Positions 1 to 41,273 of a stretch of 64,000 bases of DNA are shown here, piece after piece. Source of the DNA: Moniliella sp. 'wahieum' (lineage: Eukaryota); NCBI GenBank assembly GCA_003971905.1, contig RSEE01000004.1, forward strand, positions 248,001 through 312,000, in the 5' to 3' direction. A program made the translations under genes and the position numbers. Below the pieces are notes generated by a model that made no database searches, was not told where the DNA came from, and saw only the letters and a program-made list of their open reading frames with translations. Within the stretch, counting starts at the first letter, position 1; every line of letters starts with the position of its first letter.

Positions 1-680
1 TTCTCAATGCCGTCGAAGAGGGCAAGGCCATCTTTGGCAACATTCAGAACTTCCTTGCTTTCCAGCTTTCCACCTCGATCGCCGCGCTTTTCCTCATCCT
101 CATGTCCATCATGTTCGGTATGGCCTTGCCGCTCAATGCGATGCAAGTTCTTTTGATCAATCTCGCCTGCGATGGTCCGCCCGCCAGTCCTCGGTGTCGA
201 TCCCGCCGACGCATCGTCTTTCGCAAGCCGCCCCGGCCCAAGAACAAGCCTGTGCTCGACAAGCGTGTCTTCTTTGACATTCTCTTTTCCTCTGCCATAT
301 CTTGGGTGGCACGCTGTTTGTCTACCTGCACGAGGCTGCCGTCGACGGCACGCCGGACGAGCGCGACATGGCCATGACGTTTGTCACCTTTGTTTCCCTC
401 GACTTGATCACGGCGGTGCAGTGCCGCGGGCTTCACGTGGGTCTGTTTGCCAACCGGGTAATGACCATCACCCTCTCCGTGTCGTATGTGGTGCTGGGCG
501 CGTTGATCTACTTCCCCCCGCTCCAAGCCATCTTCCAAACCATCCGCTCTCGTTCCCCGACCTGTTGTATGGGCGGGCCTGACCGGCATCACGTTTGCTC
601 TGCACGGCGTGCGCCGCAACCTGCAACGCAAGCGTGAAGCCAGCCTCGACCTCGCGCCATGGGAGGCCCAGGTCGCTTGA
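1..680 (+). CDS. PMR1: P-type Ca2+/Mn2+-transporting ATPase (SPCA/PMR1 family), 3' end only
   Basis: Stitched translation LNAVEEGKAIFGNIQNFLAFQLSTSIAAL...LNAMQVLLINLACDGPPA(Q)SLGVDP...RDMAMTFVTFV...YFPPLQAIFQT...WEAQVA*. FQLSTS and DGPPAQSLGV are SPCA signatures. TGA at 678-680; several indel frameshifts. Confidence 0.9.
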
Positions 681-1730
681 GGCACGCACCTGCCACCTGG
701 TGAGGCGAGTGCAGCAACCTCCCCGGAGCACCTGAGCACCTAAGCCCAACCAACTCTACCCTTCCACATGGCATGCTCCTTCCCTTTCATCTGCTTGATT
801 TCTTATGGACCGACCCTTTTTGCTGTGGGGGCCCTGCCCTCTTTTCTCTTGCTTTGCCATCTGGGCCCCCGTCCAGATTCTCATCTGGACCGTTTATGCT
901 AGGCGTGCTCTCGTTGGATGTTTGCCTGCACACCGCAAGACAGTACCTACCACTAATCCTCATCAGCATCAGTCTCTCTCATTCATCTTGACCCCGGGCT
1001 TGGGGTTGGGGGTTGGGTTGGGTTGGGCGACCGCGGCTACGTAGTGTTGTAGGGCAGAGCGAAGGTCGGAGGGGGGAAATGTGGTGGAGGTGTCATAAGT
1101 GTATAGGTTTTTGCACGGCCAGGAAATCAGTTTGGCTAAAGCGGACACGAACGCCACAGGAATGGCGTTGATGACCTCGATGGCCGGTCACGTCGGTCAC
1201 GCGGGGACTGGCCACTGTTATAGGGCTGTGAAGATGGTACTTCCCTAGACAAGAACGCTCTGCGAAGCTAGCACCGAGCCATGGCTCTGTCTTCTTGCCG
1301 GTACTTTCTTGCCGTCCGAGTAATGGAATCTAAATCTACTGTGGTCGCTTCCCCTCTTTTGTATGCCCTCCACGACTGCCACCGCTTCTACTCTAGTAAT
1401 ACGGTTGGTTCACCGTTTACCGTGTACCGTGCACCGACATCTGTGCTCGTGATCAGCTAGCTCGCCATCTCTTCTTTCAGTCAATCGGGGCCATTTGATT
1501 GAAGTCAGTGGGCCATGGCACGACACAACCGATTGCTCGGTCGTATGCGCAGTCTCAGGACTGGGAGAAGCAGGGAACAGAAGGAGGATCGGGGGGGCCA
1601 GTTGACCAATCAAAGTGCACAGAAACAAAACGTGAACAGCTAGGTGTGGGGGGGGGTCAGTTAGATGCGAAAGAAGGTTGGTTCGCTCGACAAGGAAAGA
1701 AAAGTGGGCGGATAGAACAGAGTCCAGGGG

Positions 1731-1781
1731 GAAGAAGAACAGGAACAGAACAGACAGAACAAAACAGAACAGAACAGAACA
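1731..1781. repeat. (GAACA)n microsatellite
   Basis: gaagaagaacaggaacagaacagacagaacaaaacagaacagaacagaaca, just downstream of the NRPS-like gene. Confidence 0.75.
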
Positions 1782-1818
1782 AGCCGAGGCATAAGGGGCC
1801 AGGCGCAAGGCGCACGCT

Positions 1819-4800
1819 TCAACTTTTACTTGATCGTGCTGCCCGAGGCACCCAAAGATGAAGGCCGCGCTGGAACGGGAGAATGGGAGAAAGGAAGCCC
1901 GAACTCTTGCCCATCGGCTGGGCCAAGTTGAAATCCGATTCGCGCAAGAGGGGGGTCGACTTGCCCGTGGCCAAACCGTACTGGGCGCACGGAAACGCAT
2001 TTGGCGTGCGGGCCAGCCAGCATACACACACCCTGCTTCGGCAATCTCACCTGACGCGACAAGTGTGCTCGTACAGCATCGAATGCGGTTCCATGCTCGC
2101 ACCCGACAAGAGACGCGATCCTGTGCGCAACGCACAGCCGTCACCAATGGTCAATCGGTTAGACTAAACCGACCACGCGAGTTGATGTGGGCCACAACCG
2201 ACGCATCGTCCAGACTGACTTTGTTGCCCATCGTAACCAGCTCTGGTTCGGTGAGTTGCAAACTCGGCTTACCCCCGGCCCAGATAGCACAGTCCTTCCC
2301 GATCGTCGCGCCAAGGAGACGAAGGTAGAGCACAGCGTACCATGTGCCCGAGATGCAGCCCACAATCCGGCCGCCAAAGCCGCGGCCGAGCAGGCGCTGG
2401 AGAGAAAGATGCAACTGCCAGCGCTGGCAGTAGGATGACATGTCCCAATCGTACCGCCCTTCCCGCCGGCGACCAATGATCGCCCACTTGGTCACGATGA
2501 CCCAGCAAAAGCCAACAACGCCTGCGTAGTCATGATGACAATGAAGGCAAGCGCGATATACATACACCAACGCCGGGCGATACCAATGGTCCCCAAACAG
2601 GCCTGGCGCCTTGTGCTCGTAGTTCAACCGCGCCCGGTTCAGAATCACCACCGCAATCGGCGCCGGGGCCCCAGTAGACTGAGCTGAGCGCGGCCATAAA
2701 CACGTTGACCAGAACGATGAGGGGGTAGGGGAAAACAAAGTAAGGTGCTTTACGCTGGTAGAAAGCGCGGCCGAAGGGAGTGATCGTGTCCTCGCTCGGG
2801 GCCGACTTGCCAAAGCTGACCGGCTCGCCATGCTTAGCCCCCATCCAGACTGACAACGGCTCATAGTACCCGTTCCTGCGGGACAAGGCACCAGAGCCCA
2901 TGACCGCTTGTCGATCCACCGTTGTGCCGGGCAACAGAGTTACACGGTCAGCGATCATCGCCCCCGAGGCAATGGAGATTCGGTTAAATCCAATCGAGTC
3001 GGAGGTGAAAAGCTCCGAGCGCGAGCCAAACACTACATCGTCTCCAACACGAAGTAGCTCCGGGTCGGGGCAGTAGATACCGGAACCAGGCCAGTAGACC
3101 CTCCGACCTACCTGGGCGCCCATCGCACGATAAATGACCGAGGTCATCTCGTAGTGGGTACCAATAATGGCAAACCCGCCGCAGCTGAGGCTGGGAGAGC
3201 AGTTCCGTGCACATCCACCTGCGGAACAAAGCCCATTGGCTTGCATTGCGCATGGAGCCCTCCTGGTTGCGCCCAAGGAAAAGGCGCTTAACGAGAATGC
3301 CAAGGATCATGTTTGAGAGGGGGCATACAGTTTCGGACGATTCGGGCGACAAAGTGCCACCCAATACGCTGCGGATACGCAAACCATGAGACGACACCCT
3401 TAACCGAGTCGGTCTTGTTGAACAAAAACGGCTGCGACAACAGCATAAAGAGCGCGGCAAACCAAGGGATGTAGAAGGAAATGATCCCGTATTTGATAGG
3501 GAGACCGAGGCAAACAATGAGGAAAATGTTGGGTTGGGGAACCTCGCCCTTGTTGTACGCCGCAAACCCATCTGCCGAAGGTTCCTCGTGCGAGGAGGCC
3601 TGCGGCCCCCAAACTGTACCATCTGCTAAGTAGGCACCCGGGGCGATCTGGGTGAATGTGTTGACAATCGTGTGTCGCCAATCACCACAGGTTCAAGACG
3701 GAAGTAACAGTCACGCTCGACAGCAAAACCGCGAACCACACTTCGGTCGATTCGGGCCCCGTCGTGGATTGTGAGCAGGTCGTACTCTCCCAGTCTGGCG
3801 AACTTGTCGATTTTGACATCGTTTCCAATACGCGCGCCGAGGAGGCGGTAGTATGCAATGCGGAGCGACGGGGTAAGATTGAATAACCCCTTGCCCGACA
3901 TTGCAGTGATTGATGCACAATCCACCAGCGCAGGTGGTAATTGCACCACATGGGGTACTTCCCTGGGCGATATCGACCAATTACGACCCATTTGAACATG
4001 ATGGCAGCAACAGGACAAATGATACGAGAAGTGAGGCGGGCGGCAACAAGGAAGGCAAGCAGGACTCCGACCCGCTCCCAAAGTTGTCCGAAATGTAGTA
4101 GGCTGAGAAAGCAAGGCCTTGTAGGATCACAGTCCATGTCCAGGCTGCCTTGAGAGGGTACATGAACATAAGGGGAAGAATCTGGACGAAGAGTACCCAA
4201 GGATGGGTTTGACTGCGGGGCTTGTACCCGTGTGAGTGGAGGTAATCAGGAATATCCCCATCCTCTCGTACCATGGGCTGGGGAGCGGAGGAATCCATTT
4301 TTCTCGTCGAAGTACCCACTCGCCATATACTCATCGTCATCCGAGCCTAGCTGCTCGTCAACCAGACCAGCGATGCCGATGATGTCGAGTTGGTGAATAC
4401 AGAAGCGACCTCCAAGCTCGCCCCCGTCTCCTTTTTGATGGAATGGATCAGACGGCCGAGAAGGAGCGAATTCCCCCAAAAGGAAAAAGTCGGAGTCGGC
4501 TGTAATGGCTCCAGAATCCATATTGAGAAGCTTGGCCACACAGTCCCGAACAGTTTGTGTCGAACGAGACATATCAGCTGCGTGTTGGGCGCGTACCTCT
4601 TCAGTCATTGTGCAAAGTCGAAACGGCCATCGCGGGTTCGAGCAAGGCGTTGGCGGAAGACGTGCAATGGGTTGGGGACAATGTATCCATCCAGCACCCC
4701 AGCTAAGGCACCGTCAATATCGCGGCATCGTACTCGGCATCCTCGTCAATATGGAGGAAGGCTTCTGGGGATCCATCTGGCCGCATCTGCACGGCCACCT

Positions 4801-6682
4801 CTTGCACTCCGGGAATGCGCGCGCAGGCCCGTTCGATGGAACTGAGGTCTACGCGCACTTTGCGGCAAGGGATGGGGGTGCTCAGCGGAGCATTTTTGTC
4901 AGGCGCTCTGGCCTCGAAGTGACGGTCCATAAGAAGTATCGTCAGCGAGAGGCTTGATGCCTAGCCGTTGACCGAGCTTGATACGGAGCGGTTACCCGCC
5001 TGATTCTTGGGCAATTCGTCCATGTACACAATGGCAACGGCCATTGGATGGGTGCAATGCGTTGCGTAGCGTATTTTGGAGTTCCATCAACCCGATCCTT
5101 GGCTGGTTAGGTGGGGACTACCACCACGCCAATAGTCTCTTGCAAAACCTTGTGATCAATCGAAAATGCAAGAGTTGCCTTAACCCGGTCGCGCACATGG
5201 GCTGTGATGGCCTCTTCGATCTCAAAGGGAGAGATGACTTCGCCACCTTTATTGATGATCTCTTTCGACCTAGACGTGACATAGAGGAAGCCATCGGCGT
5301 CCATGTGGCCTACGTCGCCAGTGTCGAACCAACCAGAGCGGGTGAAGCAGGATTGGTCGAGCTTCCCCGGCGCCACCTCGTATCCGTCAAATGTCGGTAG
5401 CCCTCGGACACAAATGGCGCCATCGACGCCAATTGGCAGTGGTTTCTCCAATGTACGAGGATCGCGAATCGACAAGTCCGGGCCACAGGCTATGCCCGAG
5501 CACCCGGGCCGCTCAGTTGGTATGTAACGGAGGGGGAAGCAATGGGCATGCACTCAGTCATGCCATACGAGGGCAGAATGGCACAGCGAAACGTATCCCG
5601 CATCTGGGTTGCAAGCGATGGAAGAAGGCCACCGGCAGCGTTGCAAATCATCTTGATCTTGATGTCGCGCGCGACATTGATCTCATTGGGCTTGGAGGCA
5701 AGAATGGCCTGGTGCATTGTCGGAGCAGCATAGTACCAAGTGGCACCGAGCTTGCGGACCAACGTCCACCACGAGGTAGCATCAAAGCCTGAGCACATGA
5801 TGGCGCTGCCGCATGAAAAAAGTGGAGCCCACAGATTGCGGATAATGCCGCCTACATGGAAGAGGGGCATCATGTTCACTGGACATATGGGGGTTAATGA
5901 ACGATGGACTTTAGGGTCAGGGTATGGAGGGGGACATACTGTTAACTGACTCAGGCTTAAGCTGCCAGGAGTCCACAACGCAACAAGTGCCGACGATCAG
6001 ATGGCGTAGCGTGTAGGGTACGACCTTTTTGGTGCCGGATGTGCCGGATGTGTGCAGGACAAGGGCCACGTCCTGTAGGCCGTTGGGCTGTAAGCGAGCG
6101 TGGCGGCGCGTCGAACGCGGCGCGGAGATGTTGTCGCCGTCGAGGACAGCCATGTCAAAGAGACCGGCTGGGCCAGAGAGGCGAAAATCGACAAAAATCA
6201 CCTCGAGCCCATCGCGGGCATAGCAAGACCAAAGATCAAGGCGTTCGATAGCATCGCGGGTGGTGACTATGGCACGGGCACGCAGGCGACGGGCATCGTC
6301 GCGCAGCTCCTGCGACGTGCAGGCCGCGTTGACGGGAGCAGCGGTATAGTAGGCGGAGATGGCCATGAGTGCCACCGCATTCTCCGGACCAGTGGGCAGG
6401 GCAACCATAACACGGTCGTTGCGGGCAAGGGGGGAGGCGCGGGGCGAGACGGGGAGCTGGAAGGCGGTGATGACGGAGCGGAGCATGTTGTGGTCGAGTG
6501 GGGGGGGTGGAGGTCGGGGGACCAGAGAGCGGGGCGGGGACTGGTGCAGAGACAGTCGAGGAGGGTGGAGATGCGGCCATTGTCGGTAACGTGAGCTGCC
6601 ACATGGTCGCCGAGGGAGGTGGTGGGCGCGGGGGGGGCAGATGGCCCAGCATCGAGAGCGGGTATGCGCCCGAGGACGCCAT
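1819..6682 (-). CDS. NRPS-like membrane polymer synthetase: adenylation domain + carrier (T) domain + three Pls/PosA-type TM/beta-helix C-terminal modules
   Basis: A-domain motifs: LVLHTSGTSGTKKVVP, NMMPLFHVGG, TWYYAAPTMH, ILPSYGMTEC, WFDTGDVG, SRSKEIINKGGEVISPFEIE, ELPKNQAGK. T domain: DSDFFLLG(G)NSLLLGRL, Ser codon 4467-4469. Three modules of the type KWxxIGR...YRxxGAxIG...EP(D/E)LxxxG, ending YAGWPA. Intron 5879-5939 (GTATGT..CATTAAC..CAG). ATG at 6682 (MASSGAYP); 3' end approximate. Confidence 0.88.
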
Positions 6683-8143
6683 CGCAGCCGAGGGCGGGGA
6701 GGGGGAGGGGGGAGGAGGAGGAGGAGGAGGGGAGGACAAGCGCAAGCGAAGGGCAAGGCAAGGGGGCGTGCGCGGGGAGGTGGTGCTGGGCGGGGGCTAG
6801 AAGCGAGCGGTGGCTTATGCTGGCCAGCGCCCAGCGCAGGGCCAGCAGCATCCAGCGTCGAGCAGCCACCCTCGATCAGCGGTCGCATCCATCATGCCTG
6901 CTCCCGCCTGCCCAGCGCTCGGGCTGCTCTGGCGCTGCGCTGCGGCACTGCCGCCCTGCCAGGCACACCGCATCTGCCGTCCAGCGGGGCTCCAGTGCCA
7001 GCCAACACCGCCCCCCTGCCGCCGCACGCGTGGCGGGATCGCCCCTCGCCCGCCACCAGTACGCTGCTGCTGTGCCTCGTGCTGCGCTGCTGTGCCTGGT
7101 GCAGGGCGCGGGGCGCCTGCCAGCCGAGCGCACACAGGCGCTGTCCAGGCGATCGCACGGCCATCGGGACTCCGGGTGGCAACGCAGCACACCTGGGCAG
7201 TGTCGCAGGTCGCGCCCGAACGCTCCAGGCGATCGCTGCTGCGCACTGCGTACTGCTGGGCGTTGGCGAGCCACTCGCGGAGGTCGAAGGCCCATCGGCT
7301 GCTGGTCACCGGTCACCGGTCACCAGTCACCGTCACCAAGGCCAGCCCAGCGACTAGCGACCCCAATTGAGGCACACCATCGGCAACATGCGTGCTCGGT
7401 GCGTACTGAGTACTGACGTACTGAAGATTGAATTGGTCATGCATGCCCCATAATCGATAATCGATAGTCATGCACATGGAAAACCTCATGCAGTCTAGTA
7501 TAACACTTGTTATTTTCTCGGCTTCATCATATCCCACTCATTTGTCCTCATTTCCTCCATTTCTGGCGCCAATTTTTGTTTGAAAGCTGGTACTTACAAT
7601 GGAAAAGCAGTAATGGGGCAGATGTTGGATACGCTGATACCCTGTTTTGCAAACGACTAAGGGCGCGAAAACGCGAAAGGCCCATAGATATTCAAACCGT
7701 TTGCCCCACCTCCGCGATACTAATTGATAGTATTAGGGACTAAAAGGACATCGATAGATCTTAGTCGTTTTGTAGCAGATCATTGATTGAACTAGTGACT
7801 ACAGTGACTATAGAGCCTGATGTCTAGGTGACTATTGCAGTTATTCAGGCACCAATTCTTGAGCCTCTTTCTCTCCCCCTACTCTTCCTTACATGCCGCG
7901 GGCGCCTTGCACCCGACGCCTTCTAGCGCCGTCGCCGGTCATCCGCCGTTCCTAGGAGGGTGCTCCAAATCCGAACTCCGAAAACTGTTCCCCTACCCTT
8001 CTATTCGCCCTTACACTTGCGTTTTGATGTGCGTGTCAGAAGAATGCTCCACATCATGATGCTCACTGAGCCGGGATTCCCATGTAATATTCCGCGGTAA
8101 TTCTGTGCCCCTCCGTGGTATTCCGTAGCTTGGATTCCGTGGC

Positions 8144-10732: not shown

Positions 10733-11129
10733 CTTGATACTACTGGTTCGGGTAAAAAAGTACTGGAGTCAGTTCTTTGCTCTCCATCTTTTGGGCAGCG
10801 CAGAGAGTGAGGAGACCACGCCGCTCAACATCTGGCACCGCCGGCACCCTCGACAGGACGACTCACCTTGCTTGGCAGGACCGTCAAAGGTAGTTGTGTC
10901 GCGTTTGCATTAGCCACAAGCGAACCAGGGCCACCAGGTGGGACGCGCCAGAGATATGGAAATTCCGCCGAGCCGCAGCACTCTGGATTGACACTGGCTC
11001 CAAGCCGTATGTATTTTGATAAATTCAGTCGGGTATAACCCTAGTGTTCCCTGCGCTCCATGCGAGATTTGCCTGTCTTGATCGGCTTGACGAGACCACC
11101 TGTACCCACCTCTCCCAAGCCCTCTCAAG

Positions 11130-11400
11130 ATGGAAGCCGTTTCGAAGCAACCCGTTAAGCTGGCCAAGGTTACCAAGGTTCTCGGCCGCACTGGCTCGCG
11201 CGGTGGCGTGATCCAGGTGCGTGTTGAGTTCATGGACGACTCGACCCGCTCCATCATCCGCAATGTCAAGGGGCCCGTCAAGGTGGACGACATTCTTGCC
11301 CTCCTCGAGTCGGAGCGTGAGGCTCGGTATGTAGCCTGCTGCCTGCTCGCTTTGGATACGCTGGACTGACACCCTTGTTATTTACAGTCGCCTGCGCTAA
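11130..11400 (+). CDS. RPS28: 40S ribosomal protein S28 (eS28)
   Basis: [66 protein letters not shown]. Intron 11327-11387 (GTATGT..CTGAC..CAG) completes ...ARRLR*. Confidence 0.98.
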
Positions 11401-11814
11401 GCGGCACCTGGCGCTTATGTCCCTTCCCCCTACCCCTACCCCCAACTGGATTATTCAGGATGAAATCTCTATTCGTGCAGGGGGAAGGAGGAAGTCCTTG
11501 CGCCGCCGAAGTTCAGACGGAGGGAGACCTGCGCTCATGTCCCACCCACTCATCTCGGCCTCTTCCCGCTTACATGGTGTTATGCGTGAAGGGCATGCGC
11601 AGATATGTACTGGCCATGTCTCCCACCCCCGCTGGCAGTTGCGGTGGGAACTTCTTCACCCAAAATGGCCTGTACAGGCTTAGTCACCACCCATATGATA
11701 TGTGACGTGTTTCCCTGCTCATGGCTGGCTACTACGGAGGCCAAAGGTGAATAGGTGAAAGAGTGTGCACATTAAGTGTGGATCATTAGTACTTTTAGTG
11801 GCCACAAGGACCGG

Positions 11815-14071
11815 TCAAAGCAAGCCTTGAACGATAGTGAGTTGCTCCTCTGACATGCAAAATAGCGCCCGCCCTACTTTGGTTTCGGAGCCGGCCTGGA
11901 TAGGAGCAAACTCAACCACGTCCAACAGCTGGCCCGCATCCTCATGACCCAACGCCATCACCCGAGCTTCACCCACAGTACCAGGGTGGCCATCAGTGGT
12001 GGCGGGCGCCGTGTACATGAACAATGTTCCTGCGCCACGTGTTCCACCCAGCGGCGCGGCAGGAGGGGAAACAAAGGCGAGAGCAACCGCTCGGCTCGCC
12101 ATCGGTCGCACTGGCTGCCTCGTCTGCAGGCGGGCGGGAAGTAAGTGTGGTGTAGCAGAATTTAGCGTCTTTCTTGCTGGCCAACACGTAGGCTAACCCA
12201 GGCAGGTGGCCTACATGTTTCGGTTGGCCAGGTCCCATAGCGAATGCCGCCCCGTCTAGACCTTGGGCGATGGTCAAACTTGGGCACTGGGTATGCGTGC
12301 TCGTCCCTCTGTGATGGAAATGAGGCACGCCCAGGAATGGTTAGGGCCAGCATTGTCTCTTCATCGCTGTAGGAGAGCGTGGGAGGGGTAGCAGGAGCAA
12401 AGTGGGTCACTTTGGCCACTTGCAGAGGTCGGCCCACATTCGCATCCTCTTCTTCGAGGGTCGTGAGTAACGTTGACTGCGTGGGAGGCAGACCGGGTGT
12501 AGGAATGGGAGCCTCATCCAACTCGTCCGAGGTGTACTTTCCAGTGCTTCGAGTGCGTTGAGCAAATCGGATGGGCTGAGCGTCTCAAGAACATCGTCAG
12601 ACAACTTACTCTGTCGTGACTGTGGATCGGCAAAGAGCTGCGTCCACCGAGTGCCTTCCTCCTTCTTAGCAATGAAGAGAGTCAAGGCACAATACTCGCC
12701 CTGTTCCTGACGGCGGGCCCGCTGTTCCCATTGCCATCTACTCTTCTCAACATCGATTGGAGCCCAAAGTTTGTGGTTAGTATACCGCCCTTGCTGCAGC
12801 TCCGTAGCAAGCATTGTCTCCCAAGGCTGGGCAAGACTTCCTCCTGGGGAAAGTTGAACCATCTTGGGTCCCACATCTGCAGTCGTGCTGACTGATAACG
12901 ACAGACTTGAGGGAGAGGTAAAATTGACGGAAATAACCTCTTGTTTCAACGTTGGCGGGAGGGAGAACGCAACGGACACTGTTTCCGACGTTTGGGCCCA
13001 GGTATAGGCAGGCTGGGATGGGTGTTGGGTAGCTCGCACTGTCGTCGGTCCCGCCCCCAAACCTGTATGGGGCATTGGAGGGTAGTATGGGGCGCTGTCG
13101 AGCGTGGGGGATTTGTAGAGCTGGTATTTGCCAGCGGAGAGAAGGTACCACGAGATAGGATCATCGAGTGGACCAGGAATCTCGATGGCTTGGTAAAGTG
13201 GGTCAGTGCCGCGAAGAATCCACAGCACCTCAAAGTCTTCCCCATAGCGGGCATTGAGGTAGCGCTCGTCAGGAGAGGGCAGGCGCAAACGGACCAGAGC
13301 GATGTTGAATTCGGTAGTGCGTCCACTGGGCCGATCCTTCCGATTCCTTACCCGGCACAAATGTTGACTGGACCAGGAATAAAGCTTGAGTCCTGCTGGA
13401 GTCGGCAAAACGGGCCGAGAGAAGGGATGCAACTTTCCCAAACCGGGAGAAATGGTGGAGTGGGGTACTCAGCTACAGGCGAGCTGAGCCAGCGCTCGTA
13501 CCTGACCAGGGCATTGGTCTCGGCCTCATGGGCCTTCAAAAGTTTGATGGTACTATCTTCAGCACCATCGTGGACAAGCCAGAGGTGGGCACCTAGGCTG
13601 GCGGCACTGGGGAGCTGCGAGGGGGAGTTGATAGAGATGCGGTGGATGGGGTGGGTGAGGGGGGTGAGCAGCCCTGTGTCGGGGGCAATGGATATAACCA
13701 TAAGAACAACAAAGCCCTTGGCGTCAATGTAGAGCAAGTGGTCTGCCTCATCCCGGCTGGGGATGAGAAAACGGTGCAAGAGACGAGCCTGGAGCTGCTT
13801 GAGCGACATGGATGCCGCTGCCTGTTCCTCTGGGTCCAAGCGTGGGAGGGGGGATGGAAGGGGCCAGCTGGACTGAGAAATTGTGCCATTGCGCAGAACC
13901 GCAAGTGGGCGAGGAGCACGACCAGCACCGTCGCCTGTTACGCTGGTGGTATCTTCGTCGTTCCCAACGAGGCGGTACGTGTCAAAGGCGGGCTGGTAGC
14001 GAGAAGGGCTGCGCTCAAAGGAGAGCCCGGGCGTTGGGGGAGGGCGGAGAGGCAGAGTCGGCGGCAGACAT
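11815..14071 (-). CDS. NudC domain-containing protein 1 (NudCD1-like, CS domain)
   Basis: N-terminal YQPAFDTYRL; CS domain YTWAQTSETVSVAFSLP...LWAPIDVEKSRWQW...LTLFIAKKEEGTRWTQLF; then VLETLSPSDLLNALEALEKYTS, EEEDANVG, FPGLAYV-like LPGLAYVLASKKD. Confidence 0.78.
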
Positions 14072-14679
14072 GACGACGGACAGACTCGGGCGAGCGAGGC
14101 AGGTTGGGCCGAGACGGGGATGCTGAGCGTTGCAGCAGCGAGCAGCGCGAGCGGCGGAGGACGGGGGACGGGCAGGGGATGAGCAGGGGATGGGCAGGGA
14201 TGAGAAGGGGATGGGGGTGGGAGCGCCGGTGGGGCTGAGCGCGGACGATGAAAGATGCGGCGGTTGCTGATGGATGGCGTGTGCGAGGGCGTTGGGAAAG
14301 AGGCCGGGAAGAAGACGGGCCAGACCATCCCGCACCAGCACGCACACAGCAGACGCCGCACCCGGCTCAAGTACTCCGCGGAGGATACTGAGTCAGTGCG
14401 GCGGCTGAGGCCGCCTCCTTGTCCAGCCGGGCGGCCTCGGCCTGAGGAAAAGATAGTACTGTGGGTCGCTTAGTTAAGCCTTAGGCCGCGTGAGACTCCA
14501 GCTCACCACGGGCAAACCCCACGTGTACCCCCGCTTGGTTTCGATCTGCTGGCTTGGCGCATGCGCCAATTAAGAATTCTCATCCATTGATTTCGCGAGA
14601 CCATGGCATATAGCAAGGCCCGATCCTGTCCTTCGCACTTGCGCCCCCTCTCCCAGGGCACAGAGCAAGTGGCACACAC

Positions 14680-14723
14680 GGACAGGCAGGCAGAAAGGCA
14701 GACAGGCAGACAGGCAGACAGGC
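14680..14723. repeat. (CAGGCAGA)n microsatellite
   Basis: ggacaggcaggcagaaaggcagacaggcagacaggcagacaggc. Confidence 0.75.
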
Positions 14724-14995
14724 GACCACCGGGTGGACAAACTGTTTTGGGAGAAAGAAGTGACAGGAACAGGTGCAGAGCGGGGATGCATGGAGGGCGC
14801 CCAGTCGTCCCGACATGGGAAGACGACGAGGCCCGGTCCATCGCGGCAAACGGTATTGGCTTGGCACACGGAAGACTATGTTCACCATTGCAATCAACAG
14901 CAGGTGAAGGGAAAGAAGGGAGAAAGGGGAAAGGGGGAAAGGGGGGGGGGCGCCATAGCAAGCCCAAAAACAGGGATATGTGAACGCGCGTTCTT

Positions 14996-17873
14996 TTACT
15001 CCGCCGACAAACGGACGCCCATCTTCTCCCGCCACATCAAGAAGAGGTCGCGGTCCAAGTGGATGACGAATCCTCGGGCCTTCGAAGGATCTTCGGCAGT
15101 CGATGCAGTCAACTTAAACACGTGGTCCAAAGAACGCGGGTGAGTACGGCTGCGAACGTAGCGGTAGCAACGACCGATGGTCGAGTCAGTGCTGAACACC
15201 TTGCGTTCAAACTGCGACAACAGCTCATCTACCGCCACACTGTCCGACACTGCCATCCGCGGCACCTTGGCGTCGGGATGAGTGCCCCAGGGAACGTCGG
15301 GGCATAGGGTATGGAACAGTTGGTTCAAGTTTGACGCTTGGTACACAGACTGCGCCGTGTTGATAAACGTGGCCTCATGGAGGTCGGCAGGTTCTTCTTT
15401 GATAAAGGACCAGTACCAATGGACCAACGAGTTGCCCAAGAATAACGCCCCACCACCAATGTAGCGTGGTGTGTCCGTGGTGACAATGGGAGTCGGAGCG
15501 ACGACGCATGGACGGTAAGCTGGTCAAGATGGGAACCGATGGGGTGAGCGAGTTCAGTCCGGTCACTGCCCGGCCCAATGGTGAGCACTGTGCTGATGGT
15601 CCGCTTGAGGTAGAAGAGCAGGCGCCAGAGCGCTGCATAGTCCTCCGACTTGATCGAGTCCCGCGTTCGCGGTGATAGGCGAAGCAGAGCATAAGCAATA
15701 TCGGGCCTGGTGCCATGAGCAAAACTCTTGAGCTTGTTGTACGTGTACATGTACCACTGTTGCTTGTTGATCGACAGATAGGGTTCAGTGGGCGCAATCT
15801 CCCTGTCAGGGGCCGAAAAGCCCTGCCCTCCAGTTTTGCTACCGCTCACGGGGGTGATGGGCAGGGCAACGTGGCTAGCACTGTCCCCTTCCACTCCCAA
15901 ACGGGAGAGGAGACGTTGAATCTCAGCCGCTTGAGAAAGTTCAACATACCACAATTTGGGCTTGATCTCCACCGTACCAACCCGTTTGAGAGCACCTGGG
16001 TTGCGGAGAGAGAGCACAGATTGAAGCAGGGCGCGAATTTCCTCGATATCATCCGACTTGCCCAACAAACAATTTCGTCCACGTACACAGCCACTGCCAC
16101 AGACAAACTGGTGTAGAACATACCAGGACTGCCCTCGATGGCACTCAGTCCCAGACGTTCAAGACTGATTCGGGCTGAGCGGGCCCACGAATTGCGCACC
16201 GTGTCAACAGCATAGAGGGTACGCTTGAGCTTGTAAACAGGCTCCACCATGCCCTCAGGGTGCACCGCGAAACCCGGGGCTGAAGTACATATATGGACTC
16301 GTCATCATCCATTGGTTGATTAAGCCATGGGTTCAGGTAATCGAACTGGACCAACTGGCACTCGTGACTCTTGTACCGCTTCTGGCACATGGCCGCCAGC
16401 ATCGTGCGCAAACTCATGAGTGTAGGCTGGTGCGAAGGAGATTGCTCCTTGACGCTTAAGTGCACTTGGCGTAGCACTTCGTGGTCCGGACTCATCTTAA
16501 ATGTAAAGTGGCCAGTCAGGGGGGACGTCTTTTTCCGGATATTAGCCAGGCCGGGAGCAGCCCAATCAACCACCTCCCACGTTTTGAGGTTGGTTAAGCG
16601 TGTCATCTCCGCTTCGATCAGGTCAAGCCAGCGTTCCGCGTTGGGACCAGTGAGAGCCTGGTACGCTGTCGGGCGAGCCGGATCAGTGGAAGGTTCCCGG
16701 TCGGCCGACTTGAGTAGTGCCGCACGAGTGTGCTGACGGTCCGGGTTCGCCAAGGGCGACGAGGGCTTCACAGTATCAACAGGAGCCTTGGGGGTGCTAG
16801 TGGGAGAAGATCGGATCGATAAAAGACTTGGGGACGTCGACGGGTGTGTGAATCGGCTCAACGACCTTAACTGGCTCGGGCGGTAGAGAAGGTACGCCGA
16901 TCGCTGTGAATGTTTGCATCGTAGCGGAGGGCTCATCATATCGAACGGGGGTACAGGCGAGGGGAAGGTCTCCAGCACCGGAACACTCTTGGCCACGGGA
17001 GGAGGAGGAAGTGCCTCTTCCACCTTGGTACGCGGGTCAGGAAGAGACTCAGGTCATCCTCTCTCTTTAACTCTGCTCGACTGGGTACAGTGGGAGTGTG
17101 CACCGAGAGCGAAGGAAAAGGGACTCGCAGCCTTTCCTTACGATCTCCATCCACTTCGTCCACATCGGTGATGAAGTCTTGCAACAAGTCATTGAGTGCG
17201 CGCTCAGTCTCTTTCCAAAAAAGTACTTCTTGACCAGCCGAATCAACTTCCCACTGTTCGATCCGGCGACGATGCTTAACAATATCCACAAAGCGTTCCA
17301 GATAGCTACGGCATAGTTTCGGGTAGTACGGCGAAAACTGGCGGTGCAGGTGCAAGAACTTGTGGTCCGCACCTAGCGCATACCCCCAATCCTCGATCCA
17401 CTTGAGTGTGTTGCGGAAGCGAGACCGGTAGGTGCTGAAAGTCTCACTAATATGAGGTCAGGGACAATGTGCACAATTGGAGGGGAAACAAATATGGGGA
17501 ATGAATGAAACGCACTTTCCGAGTTGCAATCCTGGAGCATCTCGAGCTCGCTTATCGCTCCTTGGTCCAAGGTCTCGCCATACGCCTGGTCGAGCGCGGT
17601 GAGAAGAAGGAAGCCAGAGGGCTCATGAGAGAGGTAGGTGTACTTGCTCAGTAACGGGGCCGACATAGTCATGGTGATGAGGAGGCACTCGCGTGCTTCG
17701 GCATGAGCGTCAGACGAAGCCATTTGCCGCGTAGTTCACGGTAGATGGGCTCGGAACGGGAAGCCCAGTATTTGACGTAGTCACGACGCGCCATTTCCAT
17801 ACCCGAGCGGATCCAGTAACAGTGGAGCAGACTGGGCAAGCTCGACGGGATGAAGAAGCGGCACGGTCATCAT
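14996..17873 (-). CDS. Ty1/copia-derived gag + degenerate RT/RNase H gene (no integrase, no LTRs, one intron)
   Basis: Gag-like (UBN2/Retrotran_gag_2): LLDPLGYGxWR, LTALDQAYG, LQLGN|ETFSTYRSRFRNTLKWIEDWG...FSPYY. Copia RT_2-like: PTAYQALTGPNAERWLDLIEAEM..LKTWEVVD, QFDYLNPWLN, IYVLQPRGF, VYKLKRTLYA, VAVYVDEIV, TRPDIAYA, RLLFYLKRT. Intron 17447-17515. Confidence 0.82.
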
Positions 17874-19051
17874 CAGCACCAGACGCCAAGAGGAGGATTG
17901 ACGCCAGGAGGAGGATGGAGGCCAGGAAATGCGGGGCAGAGGTGGTGGGAGGCAAACAGAATCAACACGCAGGCGCCGCTGGCAGAAATTGCAAATCCGA
18001 TGCAATTGACAATTAATCAGGGGGTGGCCCACGGGGCGGACCGGTTCAGTATGTACGGCCACTTTCGGCCTCAACAGATCTGAGATCAGAGATCAGGATC
18101 AAGATTTGAGATGCAAAGTTGAAGCTTGAAGCACCGCCCTCCTACCTATACTTGGCATTGGCGAACGGAAAGTGTGTCATTCATACTTAGTGATTACTGC
18201 TGTCGATGATCGATAAGATCTGAGATCATCGATCAGGACTCAGGGGACCGATGACCGCGGGTGACCAGAGTGACCGACCACACGAGCTATCTGTTCTGTG
18301 CGGCAACGAAGAGACTGCCCGTGCCCACCGGGCAAGCGCACAGCCCCGCGCCCCCACAGTAGAAGTTACTGTTCGTGATCATCACGGGTCACAATTATGG
18401 GCATGATGCATTTGTGCGCGCGCTCTCGTCTTTCTTCCCACGAGATGAACACCGGCCTTGTGGGCAGTGGTCGATAATATATGAGTCTCGGGCGCACCAA
18501 AGCATCCCCACAGAGAAGAGCCCCCCACGCAGGTGAATTTATCTCGCCAAAACAAAGCCTCTGGGCCGGTGGCATCCCCAGCTCAGCGCCCAGTCGGAGC
18601 ACTGAGTTCTCGATTGTGTTGTATCGCACATCGAGCTACAGAAGAAACCAGAGAATATTGTGCCATTCAACGACGACGAAGGAAGGACGAGAGGCTTTCA
18701 ACTGATTAGAAGCTTGAAGACTAATTGAACTTTGAAACATTGGACTCAACCTTTTGAACTGCGAGCGTTAGAAGTTCAACACAAAGTAAGGCGCGTCCCC
18801 TGCTTCGGAGCTTCTTCTTTTGTGGATGAACGTACAGAACTGGTCCGTTCAAGCACTCAAGCTCCAAGCTTAGCCAGCACAACCTGCAAGCAGCGCCAAC
18901 CAGCTCCCCGCCGCCATGTGGCCCTTGCTGAGACCCGTGTGCAGGCGCCACATGGGCGGCAGGGGTGTTGTGGTGTGGCCGATCACATTTCCTTCAACAT
19001 TGCAAATTGGGTGTTCGGCTGTCACATGTCACATGTCAGTCACCGAGCGCT

Positions 19052-19144
19052 GTCAAGCTTCAAGCTTCAAGCTTCAAGTGACAGCAACACGCTGACATGC
19101 GACCGACTCCTACTTGACTTGAAGCTTGAAGCTTGAAGCTTGAC
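19052..19144. repeat. Perfect 28-bp inverted repeat made of (TCAAGCT)n / (TGAAGCT)n, 37-nt spacer
   Basis: gtcaagcttcaagcttcaagcttcaagt (19052-19079) is the exact reverse complement of acttgaagcttgaagcttgaagcttgac (19117-19144). Confidence 0.93.
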
Positions 19145-19449
19145 CACTGCGCCCGTAGGCCGTAAGGCTGTGTAAAGCCTAAGGCCTAAGGCCTACTATT
19201 AATGAGGCGGTGGCCTAAGGTAAGCGCTATAAATATAAACCCGCTTGAAGCTGCTGTTACAAACAGACCCATGCACTCAGATAAGAGAGAGACCGCTGCA
19301 TCGCCCATCCCTAGTCCCCACGGCTGAACCAATTACTCCTGGCACCTGGCGAAAAACTATAGTTAACAAGGCAAAACAAAATGTGGCACATGTAGACGTA
19401 GCATTGGGCAAGTGCACAGAAACAACCAGACGCTCGAAACACGGCACCC

Positions 19450-21144
19450 TTAGCCGTTGAGGTACTTGGTTTGCCCGATGGCCGCCCTTGCGTGGCCTCT
19501 GGCGAAGGACCATAATGTTGCCACCCGGTCTGTAGGGCGACGTACGCCCACCACGGGCAAGATTACCCCACCGATCCTTGGACTGGTGGTTACCCTTGGA
19601 TTTACCACGGCCCCCCGTTCGGGTGGTCGCAGTGGTTCATTGCCACACCACGAACCTTAGGACGACGGCCGAGCCAGCGGGCACGACCAGCCTTACCCAG
19701 CTTGCGGTGCTGCCAATTGGTGTTGCTCACACGGCCAATTGTTGCCGCACCATTGACCGGCACCATACGTACTTCACCACTCTGCATCTTGATGACTGCG
19801 TGCGTGGCAGTAGGCTTGTCTGCCATAGCAAGGGCGGCTTCCTTACCACCCAAGAGCTTCTCCAGTTGCTTCTCGCGAGGCAAGAGAGCGTTCTCCTCCG
19901 CATTACCAGGCAGCAGCTCGGGACGCGGGATGGGCGTACCTTTCTCCGTCAACTCACCCATGAGCGGGCCAGGGGGGCACCAGTTTTACGGTGCATAAAG
20001 CCCACCAGCTGACCGCAGGAACCAGCAGAACGAATGAGCTTACCCTTACCCTTGGCCGCAATGGTCACATTGTGGATCTCGGTACCGATAGGGATGAGCG
20101 ACAGAGGCAAACAGTTACCCGGGCGCAAACGCCTGCATACGGAACATACCCAGGTCGAGCGGGGCCTTGGCAATCTCCTCTTCAGTGAAACGCGTGTTAT
20201 CCATCTCGGGGTTGCGGAAGGTCGAGACACCGTCGCGACGGTAAGAGCGAACCGTGTCGCCAGCACGAGACCATCGGCCGCAACGATGTACGAAACGAAC
20301 TTGGTCTCCCGGTTCTCAATCAGTGCAACGTGGGACGAACGACCAGGATCATACTCGATGGTAAGCGTCCTGAACACCGGGCTCCCAACGGGAAAAGTCC
20401 ACGAGACGAATACGTTGCTTGTGGCCACCACCAATACCACGCGTGGCGATCCGCCATTTCTGAACGACCACCCGACTTGCGCAGCGCAACCGTCAGGCCT
20501 ACTCGGGCTCACCACGGAAGAGGTAAGGGTTGTACAGCAGACGGGTATGGCGAATACCGGGTGTGATAGGCTTGAAAGTCTTGAAAGCACCATCGACACG
20601 AAACGTAGGGTGTTTGGATCCGGGTTTTGAGTCCCAGACGGGAGGCCAGTTGGGCCTCTTTCTTGGCTTCCTTAACAGCACGCATCATCCTCTTGCGCTC
20701 CAGGACGCACGCGTCTAGGCACCAGAGTCGACTGGGAGCGGGGGAATTGTGACCAAAGTTGTATGTGCCAGACTCGCGGCTCGAGGGCCAAATGTTGTTG
20801 TCGGCAAGACCGACAAGAGTCTTGTTAGGCTTTCCAACACGGTGGGAACCGTCGGCCAGAAACGAGAACGCAACGGAATGAAACACTTGAAGCGTGCCTC
20901 AACCAGAGCATGGTTGCGCATGACGGGCGGATCGGGAAGCTGGCCCCAAGGCTGGTACGCCTCGTGGATCTCAAGCCGCCCGCCATCGTCGGTGCGATCA
21001 CTGACGGGAACTGGCGCAAGTGATGCAAGCCCGCGACGGGCATGGGCTAAACTGGCGCTTATGGTCGGCACGCGACCGGCAGCCGGGCGCACAGGCAACG
21101 CATAGTGAGCGGTGGGCTGCAAGGCGAAGGGGAAGCGAGGTCAT
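19450..21144 (-). CDS. RML2: Mitochondrial ribosomal protein uL2m (L2)
   Basis: [109 protein letters not shown]. Arg/Ser/Ala-rich presequence-like start [13 protein letters not shown]. Ends approximate. Confidence 0.95.
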
Positions 21145-21303
21145 GGGCGATCAGCCTGATGGAGCAGAATGGGTGGCCTCGGGAGGTTGCGATACGCAGC
21201 GGAATGTGGAAGCGGAATAAAACGGGTGAGCCCCCAGGCCCCAGTATTTTTGAAATTGCAGCTGCCCTTTCCTACGGCAGCCGCTCCAGCCAGAAAAAGT
21301 TAA

Positions 21304-23743
21304 TAGACGTAGCGTTCCCCCTGTCCCAGCCTTCTTAAGTCTGCCAATAAAATGGACGTGATGGATGAACGGTTAGGTTTAGACGTAGCGTTCCCCCTGT
21401 CCCAGCCTAAGCTCTGCCAAATGAAATGGAAGTAGCGATGGGGCGATGATTGATGAACACCTCTGGTTCTCTGGCGATCCGCCAGCCGAGTGCCTTGACC
21501 TACATGTATTGGCTCCCCAGTTACCCCTCAATCCTGATCCTGAACCCGTAGGCGTCACCTGATCATGGGTACGTTGGGAACGCTGTCCCCCTCGCTTGCC
21601 CGCTGCCTGCCCTCTCGGCAGGGTCACAGCAGAGAGGGATTATATGTATTTTTGTTTTTGTGTTTGTGGGCGCACTCTCGCACTTGCGTCTTGCCCTACC
21701 TAGATGCGGCTGCTCTTGGGATTTTGCATACTCCCTCTCAGTCCTTCCCTTCTCTCGGCGTTCAGCGCTGCACAGGGTTCCCCTGATTGACACGATTCTC
21801 TACCACCACACTTGTCAAGAGGAGAGAGCTGACAGCAAGACAGTAGTCCTTTAGCGTTTGATCATATAAAAGCTTTCTGTTTAATGTGTTCCGACGTCTC
21901 ATAATGGGAAGATGCCTGCCCGTACATGAGGACCTACGCTGGTTCACCTAGGACCCTAGAGAAAGCATGATATGTATGTGACGAAAGAGACCCACCATCA
22001 CCACGCTCTTTTGCTTTCATATATGTGGTCGTGTAGAATACCAGACCATGTTCCCGCGTTCGCTTTTTGTCTGGGTTAGATATGGATATCTCCTTACCCA
22101 AAGATGCGCCAGTAGCTCCTGATCTTATATCGACTTGTAAGGAATCTTTGCATCTTAATTCTGCCCTCTCAATGTCGTTGCACCCATGTCCATTCCTCCC
22201 CCAGAGGGATGACTTCGTCTTCTTTCTTTTTCTTTTTTTCTCCGTCGCCCTTTAGACGCTCATTCGTCCGCTTATCCAGGCTCTCTCTCTCTTCAGACAA
22301 GGTCACAAATACCGACTATTATATAGACTGTCGGTTAGAAGTTCGTCAAGGTGACCTCGAAGGTTTCTCTATTTGTTACTAGGCCAAACAATTGGGTATG
22401 CTGTTGGCCCAGGGAGCCGGACGGGCAACAAAAGGATGAGGAGAAGGTGATGAATTGGAGCCAGAGTTGGGCTTGGGTACAGAGGTATTGTATAGAAGGC
22501 TGGACTAGGCATAGGGCCAGGGAGGCAGACAGGAGAAAGTGCAGAGCAAATGGACAGTGATACGCTGGGAGACACCCGCAGCATGGAAGTCGATGGAACC
22601 GAGGTGAACCTGTGGTTTACCGACGGGAGCTGGAGGATCACAGTCGACACAATGCGGTACTTATTTTCCGTGTGGGTGTGTATTGCGGTATGTGCCTAAT
22701 AGGATGAAGCCGGGTTGCGGATCCAGCCCCCGGAGGGTTCAGGGGACACGCTGTGCGCACTTTGATGTAATAGAGAAGACGCAGGCAGTGCATTGGTTAT
22801 AGCGCAACAAGTCCTTATTGTGAGGTCACAGTGATGCGGGTCGACCTCTTTTGTAAGAGGCAGCCCCAAAGATGATTAAGCTGATTATTAGTTTCTTGAA
22901 TGTGCTCCCTGTATTAACCAGGAATAGAGACAGATGAACGGGTACCCACTTCTACAAGCACGAGCGATTCCCGATATATGTTCAGACTGACGCCCAGGCT
23001 AGTATAATACCTCCTTTTACTTCTGTACCCTAGGCCCCCTCCATACAGTCTCTTCCATACAGTCTCTCTCCATGTGCATAAATACCATAGGAGGACCATA
23101 CCCAAAGTGTAGGTGCATAGGGGGCTCAAGCCTCTGCAATTTTCATTCAACACGGCCACATGCTTATCCTGCGTCGGGGAAATTCTTGACAAAGACGGAG
23201 AGTATATAGGCTGATGAAGAGTCGATTGAATTGATATTCTCTCCACTCAGTACCCACAAGACTCCTCTCTCGCATTCGTGCATACTATAAAAGATTGGAA
23301 TGGAACCAAGTTGATGCAGCTAGTATGACAAATTTCCTCTTATGTTTGAGCGCTACGGAGTAAATGGGTTGTCTAATACGATGATATATACTGTACTAGG
23401 TCATCCCAGCTGCAGAGCTTCCCGTAAGTGGCTCATTCCCCCATAATTCTTCCTGCTTTACCCAGGCCTGGGCTTGAAGCTGATGAGGCCTCGCCCAACA
23501 TCTCCTGTCTCACCACCGGGGTGGATTTTCGGCAAAAAACCCAAAGCACTATAGCCAGTCTATACAATCCAAGAACGACTAGTAGCCTATTAGCGCATAC
23601 AGAACGCAACACAGGACGGGTCATTTTTCTCTTTTTGTTAAAGACCAGAGAGACAGTCAGCTCATAGTGCACTGCTTTGCACATGAGCTACAGAAGCTAG
23701 ATCACGTCCATTTCATTGACAGAGCTTAAGGCTGGGACAGGGG
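21304..23743. mobile_element. Possible non-autonomous/degenerate element bounded by an inverted ~45-bp motif CCCTGTCCCAGCCTTAAGCTCTGTCAATGAAATGGACG
   Basis: Motif occurs twice in tandem (~21311-21362, ~21387-21432), inverted at ~23701-23743, and again at ~41509-41553. Interior has no intact ORF; no TSD identified. Confidence 0.4.
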
Positions 23744-40781: not shown

Positions 40782-41273
40782 ACCCAGAGCATGTTCGCTC
40801 TAGACTGGGAAACCGACTAAGCCGGCCGATACCTTGGGGGTTTCTGAATATATAACCTCACTGCTTGTTTCTCTATATGCTATGAGAAGCATCTCTTCCG
40901 CTATAACATTCCCGGTATCGACAGAGTGCACCTGCTTTTGTATCTACTGTCATCTCAATCTCAATTGTGATGGTCCGCTTTCGAGCGCTGAATTGACGTT
41001 TCTTTACGCACGATGAAAAAGTGTCCCGCTTCTCTGTCTACGACCATATTAAATGCGACTTGCCTGATGATTCTTTCGAGGTGTCTGTTGAGAGAGAGAA
41101 ATGGATGTAAGGGCAGTGCGCACGCATATCAGTGTACTGTGTAGGTGCAACAACTAATATGGTATCACCGTCAGGGACAAGGCTGTGGACGATAGTAGAT
41201 TTTGCCCTCTCTTTTCCTCTCGCGCTCTTCGCCGTCCTGCGCGTGTCAACTTCACATGTTGGCAGAAGAGGAG

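Follow-up and report, generated by a model that had tools for sequence, protein, structure and literature searches.

A candidate host gene with Gag-like and remodelled reverse transcriptase-RNase H domains, probably domesticated from a Ty1/copia retrotransposon, in Moniliella sp. 'wahieum'

Introduction

Can a host genome keep the outer parts of a retrotransposon polyprotein, polymerase module included, as a gene of its own? This question is raised by a locus on the minus strand of a 64,000-nucleotide (nt) stretch of the Moniliella sp. 'wahieum' genome (assembly GCA_003971905.1, contig RSEE01000004.1, positions 248,001 to 312,000 of the forward strand; hereafter the window, in whose numbering all coordinates are given), where a reading made from the sequence alone had singled out 14996..17873 as a candidate domesticated Ty1/copia gene with Gag-like, reverse transcriptase (RT) as well as ribonuclease H (RNase H) parts. 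We conclude that the candidate is probably a host gene domesticated from a Ty1/copia retrotransposon, because it shows no hallmarks of mobility, is present as one copy in the window, carries an intron, has a host-like GC content at third codon positions (GC3) and lies among housekeeping genes, and because its family has a long stem and a short crown, shows allele-like variation and has lost residues that an element needs.

That hosts capture Gag, protease, integrase and envelope from retrotransposons is well documented, and capture of the RT-RNase H of a long terminal repeat (LTR) element is not on the usual lists, at least in the portions of the surveys that bear on it: in that of Kokosar and Kordis (PMC3670739), gag, envelope, integrase and protease are named as contributions of LTR elements to host genes, and RT is not listed there. 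If our conclusion is right, a conserved Gag-pseudoRT-pseudoRNase H protein would widen what hosts can salvage from retroelements, would be a natural case of an RT fold kept for a use other than polymerisation, and would offer a testable Gag-Pol decoy candidate for the control of copia elements in fungi.

Results

A family of uninterrupted homologues

Using a 277-amino-acid (aa) piece of the candidate (15325-16158) as query, we found three uninterrupted proteins, P0001 (821 aa), P0002 (692 aa) and P0003 (898 aa), which are 63%, 50% and 41% identical to the piece, respectively. When these three were compared with the whole window by tblastn, matches occurred at the candidate locus only, running collinearly from 17448 to 14999 in five segments along which the frame changes four times. 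A HMMER profile of P0001-P0003 (the family profile), run on 1.84 billion representative proteins, returned 9 proteins at E <= 1e-30 and defined the family as five clusters (P0003, P0001, P0002, P0016 and P0004), all of them from short-read assemblies. P0004 (442 aa) is the complete N-terminal part and P0016 (420 aa) a C-terminal part; the longest contig of each measures 3735 nt, and the two proteins are complementary halves separated by ~30 missing residues that include motif A (QFDY). We regard them as probably one gene, whose lineage would have either an intron or a frame break in the missing stretch. The layout Gag-linker-RT-RNase H is thereby common to the window gene and four other lineages, at 41-74% identity.

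P0001 has five cluster mates, all of 821 aa and on contigs of 5.2-13.6 kb (8.8-13.6 kb for P0200-P0203), which differ at 1-5 sites, with six variable sites occurring in mixed combinations; judged from these sequences, the variation resembles that of alleles of one locus. The next HMMER match after the family is P0017 (E 2.5e-50), followed by generic copia proteins at E 1.8e-38 and weaker. P0017 (821 aa) is a canonical copia fragment comprising the C-terminal part of integrase, RT and RNase H, with the motifs YVDD, LYGLRQ and ADADHA; no other ordinary element comes nearly as close to the family, whose progenitor lineage it may represent. A metagenome scan with the family profile yielded one locus (L001), which at 31% identity is an ordinary copia relative and was rejected as a family member, and in the Protein Atlas P0003 fell closest to generic RVT_2 clusters, at 0.86, a lead only. 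ORC4 of the window fell there, at 0.96, with a cluster labelled Ascomycota, a match too coarse to identify a taxon.

Aligned end to end with the uninterrupted homologues, the candidate has the order Gag-like domain, linker, RT and RNase H that had been proposed for it, and the proposed limits hold for a minus-strand gene that runs from ATGATG (17873-17868) to TAA. The start was set at 17873 because the N-termini of the window gene and P0004 coincide there. The conceptual product has ~937 aa when read through ~10 frame breaks, which are treated further below, and the parts of the gene, with the evidence for each, are the following.

14996..17873, minus strand: whole gene in two exons (stop-free open reading frame (ORF) pieces; frameshift-aware alignments to P0001 and P0004)
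17516..17873, minus strand: exon 1, N-terminal half of the Gag-like domain (45/111 residues identical to P0004 residues 1-126)
17447..17515, minus strand: spliceosomal intron of 69 nt, GTGCGT...CTGAC...TAG (sequence; P0004 has no insertion here)
17161..17446, minus strand: start of exon 2, C-terminal half of the Gag-like domain, ETFSTYRSRF...DFITDV (56-81% identity between lineages; hhalign to copia Gag)
16742..17160, minus strand: disordered Pro/Ser-rich linker with a conserved SLPDP motif (hypervariable, many indels; low model confidence; more mismatches than in the domains)
15880..16741, minus strand: RT domain of the copia RVT_2 type with a remodelled active site (RVT_2 in P0001-P0003; P0001 model mostly above 90 in local confidence; Foldseek)
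16340..16342, minus strand: motif A aspartate (QFDYLNPWL), kept (family alignment)
16200..16217, minus strand: LYAVDT where copia has LYGLKQ (sequence)
16074..16085, minus strand: motif C, reading YVDE (sequence)
15790..15879, minus strand: variable loop from RT to connection (length variation in the family; local model confidence below 50 at P0001 residues 505-544)
15529..15789, minus strand: connection region, TRPDIAYALLRLSPR ... LFYLKRT (the most conserved block of the family; copia TRPD kept in 4/4 members)
14999..15528, minus strand: RNase H-like domain and C-terminal tail, whose end coincides with the end of copia Pol (alignment to copia RNase H)
14996..14998, minus strand: stop codon TAA, conserved in position in the family (sequence; family alignment)

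The intron has exactly the sequence that had been described. P0004 is continuous across the intron point, where it reads ...CNLQPNETF..., and as this is what an intron at 17515-17447 predicts, the intron is supported; P0003 diverges upstream of NETF, at the start of exon 2. The junction given in the sequence-only reading, LQLGN/ETF (the slash marking the splice), is a possible reading and one of two, the other, ...CNSE/(N)ETF, fitting P0004 equally well. YVDE (16085-16074) and LYAVDT (16217-16200) are present in the sequence where they had been reported, and the supposed RNase H motif VHASSL proved to be a frameshift artefact, the homologous reading being VHAS-(break)-APTPIV.

Retained domains and missing parts

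When six pieces of the window gene were searched alone against Pfam, one of them reached RVT_2 (E 4.7e-4, 20.3 bits, below the 31.6-bit cut-off), and matches of window pieces to PelG and DUF6127 at E <= 1 were dismissed as chance. P0001-P0003 score above the RVT_2 cut-off, with 40.6-58.1 bits, and P0016 falls just at its margin (31.5 versus 31.6 bits), and no other Pfam domain was found in P0001-P0004 and P0016. An AlphaFold 2 (AF2) model of P0001, made from a 60-row alignment, has a mean predicted local distance difference test score (pLDDT) of 76.9 and a predicted template modelling score (pTM) of 0.73; 416 residues reach at least 90, nearly all of them past residue 205, and the linker (residues 70-202) lies below 50. 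The best Foldseek matches of this model are the RTs of human immunodeficiency virus 1 (HIV-1), Ty3, xenotropic murine leukaemia virus-related virus, Moloney murine leukaemia virus and cauliflower mosaic virus (probability 1.0, E about 1e-6), and a sequence search of the PDB with the family profile gave 0 matches.

The Pfam searches, which the sequence-only reading had named as a check, thus find RVT_2 and no rve in the uninterrupted homologues and leave the Gag part unrecognised, so that the Gag call rests on a profile-profile match. In this comparison, made with hhalign, a profile of the Gag-like domain matched, over 143 columns, a profile built from the N-termini of 48 copia polyproteins (probability 79%, E 1.6e-5), and all seven controls (the query in reverse, five shuffles of the columns, and a target made of copia residues 331-660) stayed at or below 0.2%. 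Weak direct matches of hidden Markov models fall within the Pfam Retrotran_gag_2 interval in 7/7 copia proteins checked. By these profile comparisons, the identification of the N-terminal domain as Gag is moderately supported.

In canonical copia rows, the interval from Gag to RVT_2 holds zf-CCHC, Pol_BBD, gag_pre-integrs, rve and SH3_retrovirus; there the family has only a length-variable linker of 130-200 aa. Neither zinc knuckle nor protease nor integrase was found by Pfam in the six window pieces, P0001-P0004 and P0016, and there is no CCHC; when 145 copia proteins were compared with the 64-kb window by tblastn, matches were confined to 15250-16750, apart from one 20-aa chance match. These results agree with the earlier statement that integrase and CCHC are absent. 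The same is true of the LTR pair, as no LTR-like direct repeat of at least 20 nt flanks the gene within 11000-22000; the two short direct-repeat families of this interval (23 and 29 nt) do not bracket the candidate, of which the 64-kb window holds one copy.

A uniformly remodelled active site

To compare the family with copia, we used the 80 columns whose conservation reaches 80% or more across 55 copia rows. Family members keep the copia residue in 161/299 cells of these columns, and their departures are mostly uniform among members. In the fingers, K298 is replaced by S, K307 by Q and R309, a residue with 100% conservation in copia, by H or Y, and the GxxQxxGxD segment is deleted; we take the altered fingers columns to be putative positions for binding deoxynucleoside triphosphates (dNTPs), by analogy with K65, R72 and Q151 of HIV-1 RT. 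The motif A aspartate is kept in 3/3 members with a residue in the column, with the adjoining copia-invariant A353 changed to P, and in LYGLKQ both K395 (to D or E) and Q396 (to S, G, T or P) are replaced in 4/4 members. The second aspartate of YVDD is E in the window gene, P0001, P0002 and P0016 (NVDE), and D in P0003. Among the acidic columns of RNase H, D646 is S or A in 4/4 members, E689 is kept in 4/4 and D739 in 3/4, and the aspartate of the KHID motif aligns with Cys, as read from the alignment to P0017.

In these alignments the replacements at the putative dNTP-binding positions, and at two of the four carboxylates of RNase H, are family-wide, so that the protein is most likely a pseudo-enzyme, with polymerase and RNase H activity probably lost. 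With departures mostly uniform across members, the pattern as aligned is one of a fixed, conserved change of function and not of erosion.

Phylogeny and selection

We placed the family in a tree of 50 RT-RNase H rows and 451 columns (quick IQ-TREE search without bootstraps), whose copia rows are the 45 that came first among 104 copia hits of adequate coverage. Within the copia RTs, the family forms a single clade, with a support of 100 in the Shimodaira-Hasegawa-like approximate likelihood ratio test and a stem that is 3.34 changes per column long; the branches inside the clade measure 0.09-0.53, and paths from lineage to lineage are about 1.0-1.2.

As a stand-in for a codon-level ratio of nonsynonymous to synonymous substitution rates, we simulated neutral change by substituting the window codons up to the observed 201/777 differences from P0001 in 300 runs. 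The simulated sequences acquired a mean of 9.0 in-frame stops (minimum 2 in 300 runs) versus 0 observed, and the mean BLOSUM62 score of replacements was +0.10 in the observed comparison versus -0.60 +/- 0.105 in the simulation, the observed value being reached in 0/300 runs. Differences between the window gene and P0001 amount to 56/136 in the linker versus 145/641 in the domains; between distant lineages, identity is 56-66% in the Gag part and 46-55% in RT, and open frames of 692-898 aa persist at 41-50% identity. Because stops are lacking and replacements are conservative relative to the simulation, the open frame, as far as these sequence comparisons can tell, is kept under purifying selection over a long divergence.

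Frame breaks in the window copy

Frameshift-aware alignment of the window to P0001 gave 576/777 aligned residues identical, with six frame breaks and 0 in-frame stops, and alignment of P0004 (442 aa) to 17864-17523 added three more breaks, with 45/111 residues identical. The aligner is a custom script without an intron state, and break positions are good to about +/-10 nt. We place a tenth indel at the junction of exon 1 and the intron because the frames of exons 1 and 2 miss each other by one base; it has two placements, LQLGN/ETF or ...ELEMLQDCNSE/(N)ETF, each of which needs one 1-nt indel.

17802..17812, minus strand: frame break at ~17807, one base missing (alignment to P0004)
17785..17795, minus strand: frame break at ~17790, one base missing (alignment to P0004)
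17717..17727, minus strand: frame break at ~17722, one base missing (alignment to P0004)
17516..17535, minus strand: tenth break, a 1-nt indel at or just before the exon 1-intron junction (frame mismatch)
17047..17057, minus strand: frame break at ~17052, one base missing (alignment to P0001)
16919..16929, minus strand: frame break at ~16924 in the linker, one base missing (alignment to P0001)
16803..16813, minus strand: frame break at ~16808 in the linker, two bases missing or one extra (alignment to P0001)
16274..16284, minus strand: frame break at ~16279 in CAGCCCCGGG, one base missing (tblastn and alignment to P0001)
16059..16069, minus strand: frame break at ~16064, one base missing (tblastn and alignment to P0001)
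15496..15506, minus strand: frame break at ~15501, one base missing, the source of the false VHASSL (tblastn and alignment to P0001)

The candidate thus has ~10 breaks in 2.8 kb, all of them 1-2-nt indels and 8 or 9 of them one-base deletions. Other genes of the 64-kb window served as controls. A P-type ATPase gene (K/Na-type, 37400-40800, plus strand), aligned to the named fungal orthologue P0170 with 566/1034 residues identical, shows 14 frame shifts of one or two bases, of which 9 are one-base deletions and one lies within the TGDGxND motif; a few of the 14 adjoin two likely introns (about 38602-38663 and about 40040-40090). The closest named homologues of this ATPase, 48-52% identical, belong to unrelated classes of fungi. 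This indicates, from the alignment, deletion-biased indel noise in the assembly, and the breaks of the candidate match those of the ATPase in density and in deletion bias. Two further domains are split between frames with no space for an intron, namely RhoGAP at about 52363 (gene region 51910-54821, minus strand) and Cation_ATPase_C at about 300-311 (gene at 1-740). Since a conserved ATPase in the same window is broken at equal density, most of the ~10 breaks are probably assembly indels, in which case the gene would be intact in the organism. The sequence-only reading had held that the breaks are indels like those of neighbouring genes and not stops, which is supported by the ATPase, 20 kb away, although the breaks, at ~10, are more numerous than it implied.

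Discussion

The claim that the locus is a domesticated copia gene under selection is supported by the homologues, the lack of stops, the conservative replacements, the uniform remodelling of the active sites and the lack of LTRs, protease and integrase. In the history that we favour, an internal deletion in a copia element removed zinc knuckle, protease and integrase and joined Gag to RT-RNase H via a disordered linker; a burst of change on the stem lineage would have followed, and purifying selection would then have preserved the protein in five lineages or more. It would have kept the folds of RT and RNase H and lost catalysis, so that the protein would work as a pseudo-enzyme and not as a polymerase.

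Several observations weigh against this reading. The Gag part has no Pfam match in any member, and the AF2 model of the N-terminal domain (P0004, 6-row alignment) is all-helical and unreliable (pLDDT 51, pTM 0.28), with nothing at E <= 0.001 in Foldseek; the vinculin head and similar top rows of that search are meaningless for a model of pLDDT 51 and were set aside. Some of the window breaks may be real, because break density is uneven across the window, the 634-aa RhoGAP ORF and the 376-aa ORC4 ORF being unbroken and exon 1 holding 3-4 breaks in 360 nt. In chemical terms, all three carboxylates of RT persist (D, D, D/E), so that loss of the polymerase is a matter of inference. Purifying selection acts on active transposons too, and a host gene is therefore not distinguished from an element by selection tests alone. 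Finally, several homologue contigs are only 3.7-5.3 kb long, about the size of the internal region of an element, and from their sequences the homologues may be paralogues or copies of a mobile family instead of orthologues in different species.

These last points bear on an unlikely alternative, in which the family is a still or recently mobile non-autonomous copia derivative that borrows protease and integrase, and the window copy is one insertion whose ends were not recognised. Open, conserved ORFs are expected of an active element too. Against this alternative, no direct repeat of at least 20 nt flanks the gene over 11-22 kb, one copy only is present in 64 kb, and a spliceosomal intron lies within gag. 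Replication via spliced RNA tends to remove introns. The short homologue contigs fit assemblies that break at repeats, yet there are cluster mates on contigs as long as 8.8-13.6 kb, and the differences among mates amount to 1-5 residues only. Likewise, YVDD is kept in P0003 and the nearest relative outside the family is canonical copia, whereas the putative dNTP-binding residues of the fingertips, invariant in the 55 copia rows, are lost in all members, and a stem of 3.34 with short inner branches is unlike a proliferating family.

The conserved gene might also be real and the window copy a recent pseudogene in which some or all of the ~10 breaks are genuine. The number of breaks, of which 3-4 fall within the initial 360 nt, speaks for this, as do other window ORFs of 1.1-1.9 kb that are unbroken, from which it follows that the error rate is not uniformly high. 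However, there are 0 stops and no indel beyond 1-2 nt, and breaks of equal density and the same deletion bias hit invariant motifs of the P-type ATPase. The window gene departs from columns shared by the other four lineages at 9/205, mostly conservatively, versus 5/201 for P0001, a count that speaks for a pseudogene, but its end branch (0.091) is shorter than that of its uninterrupted sister (0.13), and its identity to P0001 is undiminished after the breaks, still 72% in the last segment (tblastn). Taken together, we consider a recent pseudogene improbable.

Wherever a member has a residue at the carboxylate positions of the polymerase site, a carboxylate is kept (motif A, D; motif C, D-D or D-E), while the pocket around them was rebuilt in one conserved way, and for this reason the RT could be repurposed and not dead, acting in the cell as a reverse transcriptase or nucleotidyl transferase that descends from copia, has acquired a new substrate and is delivered by a capsid-like domain. 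This would amount to a host-owned reverse-transcription system in fungi, and we regard it as a long shot. That the locus is a functionless decaying copia fragment and the similar Logan proteins other dead copies is hardly credible, for even if the window pieces give only sub-threshold RVT_2 and the frame is broken many times, homologues keep open frames of 692-898 aa at 41-50% identity, 0/300 neutral simulations reach 0 stops or the observed replacement score, and the contrast between domains and linker is unfit for neutral decay.

If the candidate is a host gene, as we think probable, what might it do? One tentative proposal, the weakest part of our reading, is that it acts as a decoy Gag-Pol. 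The Gag-like domain would carry the protein into copia particles or ribonucleoprotein complexes, where the decoy could not be cleaved, as it is without protease or a recognisable site; the RT-RNase H arm, keeping a nucleic-acid cleft but probably not the chemistry, would occupy Pol positions, sequester template or primer, or poison RT dimers, thereby damping copia replication. About as likely is a scaffold that binds RNA or RNA:DNA independently of retroelements, because two findings count against a restriction factor in an arms race: the Gag part is as conserved as RT, and identity between the family and present copia rows is only 20-25%.

There are known proteins with features of either role. 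The Ty1 p22 or copy-number-control Gag fragment and Fv1 are Gag-derived and restrict retroelements by hindering particle assembly, and by analogy they may serve as a model for the decoy mechanism; p22 is made by the active element itself and Fv1 is Gag only, and neither is known to have an RT-RNase H arm. The rvt genes and Prp8 encode cellular single-copy proteins with RT-like domains. In Prp8 the RT-like and RNase H-like domains form a non-catalytic RNA-binding scaffold, and rvt proteins are reported to keep polymerase activity; neither is known to contain a Gag domain or to derive from an LTR retrotransposon.

Compared with the Gag-Pol of Ty1/copia (Pseudoviridae), the family has the order of its outer parts, with a putative Retrotran_gag_2-like N-terminus, RVT_2 followed by RNase H and the same C-terminal end. 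It differs in having the linker of 130-200 aa where copia has ~650 residues (zf-CCHC, the Pol_BBD protease, gag_pre-integrs, rve and SH3_retrovirus), in its lack of LTRs, its intron and its replaced dNTP-binding and RNase H residues, and in an identity of about 20-25%. For fungi, the consulted portion of Wang and Han (2021, PMC8321522) describes three gag co-options, two of them from copia, Crtg12 and Crtg13 in Dothideomycetes; both are single copy, and intron gain is taken there as support for the co-option of Crtg14. Crtg12 and Crtg13 resemble the candidate as fungal genes from Ty1/copia gag, and differ, as far as that portion and the tree labels of its supplement go, in being gag co-options at loci of ~0.55-0.65 kb versus 2.9 kb with RT and RNase H for the candidate, a separation made by description (PMC8321522). 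The mammalian genes PEG10, RTL1, ARC, ASPRV1, NYNRIN and those derived from integrase are likewise single-copy and have lost LTRs and mobility, and some mammalian LTR-derived genes retain Gag and part of Pol, according to the portions consulted of PMC3670739 and PMC9447858; unlike the candidate, which keeps the RT-RNase H module, they are animal genes of Ty3/gypsy or retroviral source in these accounts. In the literature searched, we found no description of a copia Gag-RT-RNase H host gene, which is not proof that none exists.

Neighbouring genes and other features of the window

The candidate lies between two genes on the same strand, and its GC3 (0.648) is close to that of host ORFs (0.641).

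12410..13468, minus strand: downstream neighbour, a CS-domain (NudC-like) gene (Pfam CS, E 3.5e-8)
19605..20671, minus strand: upstream neighbour, a ribosomal protein L2 (RML2-like) gene (Pfam Ribosomal_L2_C and Ribosomal_L2_N)

Overlapping the CS-domain ORF at its start, in a different frame, is a 373-aa Pro-rich open frame without a Pfam match (13351-14469, minus strand), which either extends that gene N-terminally across an indel or is spurious, as a GC-rich ORF may be. On the other side, 200-360 nt upstream of the candidate start codon, two copies of a 23-nt GATC-rich motif (AGATCTGAGATCA...GATCAGGA) lie 140 nt apart at 18076-18238 and could be a promoter element or chance. Between the candidate and the L2 gene, at 19052-19144, there is a perfect inverted repeat, 28 nt long and built of (AAGCTTC)-like units around a 37-nt spacer, and at 21304-21408 an exact 29-nt direct repeat with a spacing of 76 nt.

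Farther away, three overlapping minus-strand ORFs in different frames (53935-54821) lie upstream of RhoGAP and include a LIM domain, so that 51910-54821 is probably one LIM-RhoGAP gene with assembly indels. A second cation-transporting ATPase gene is truncated by the window edge, and its C-terminal part lies at 1-740 (plus strand). The interval 1413-6891 holds roughly twelve minus-strand ORFs that overlap in shifting frames, of which only the two nearest 6891 match AMP-binding; they may be one large gene for an adenylate-forming enzyme fragmented by indels, or partly spurious GC-rich ORFs. A Fungal_trans domain is also present in the window.

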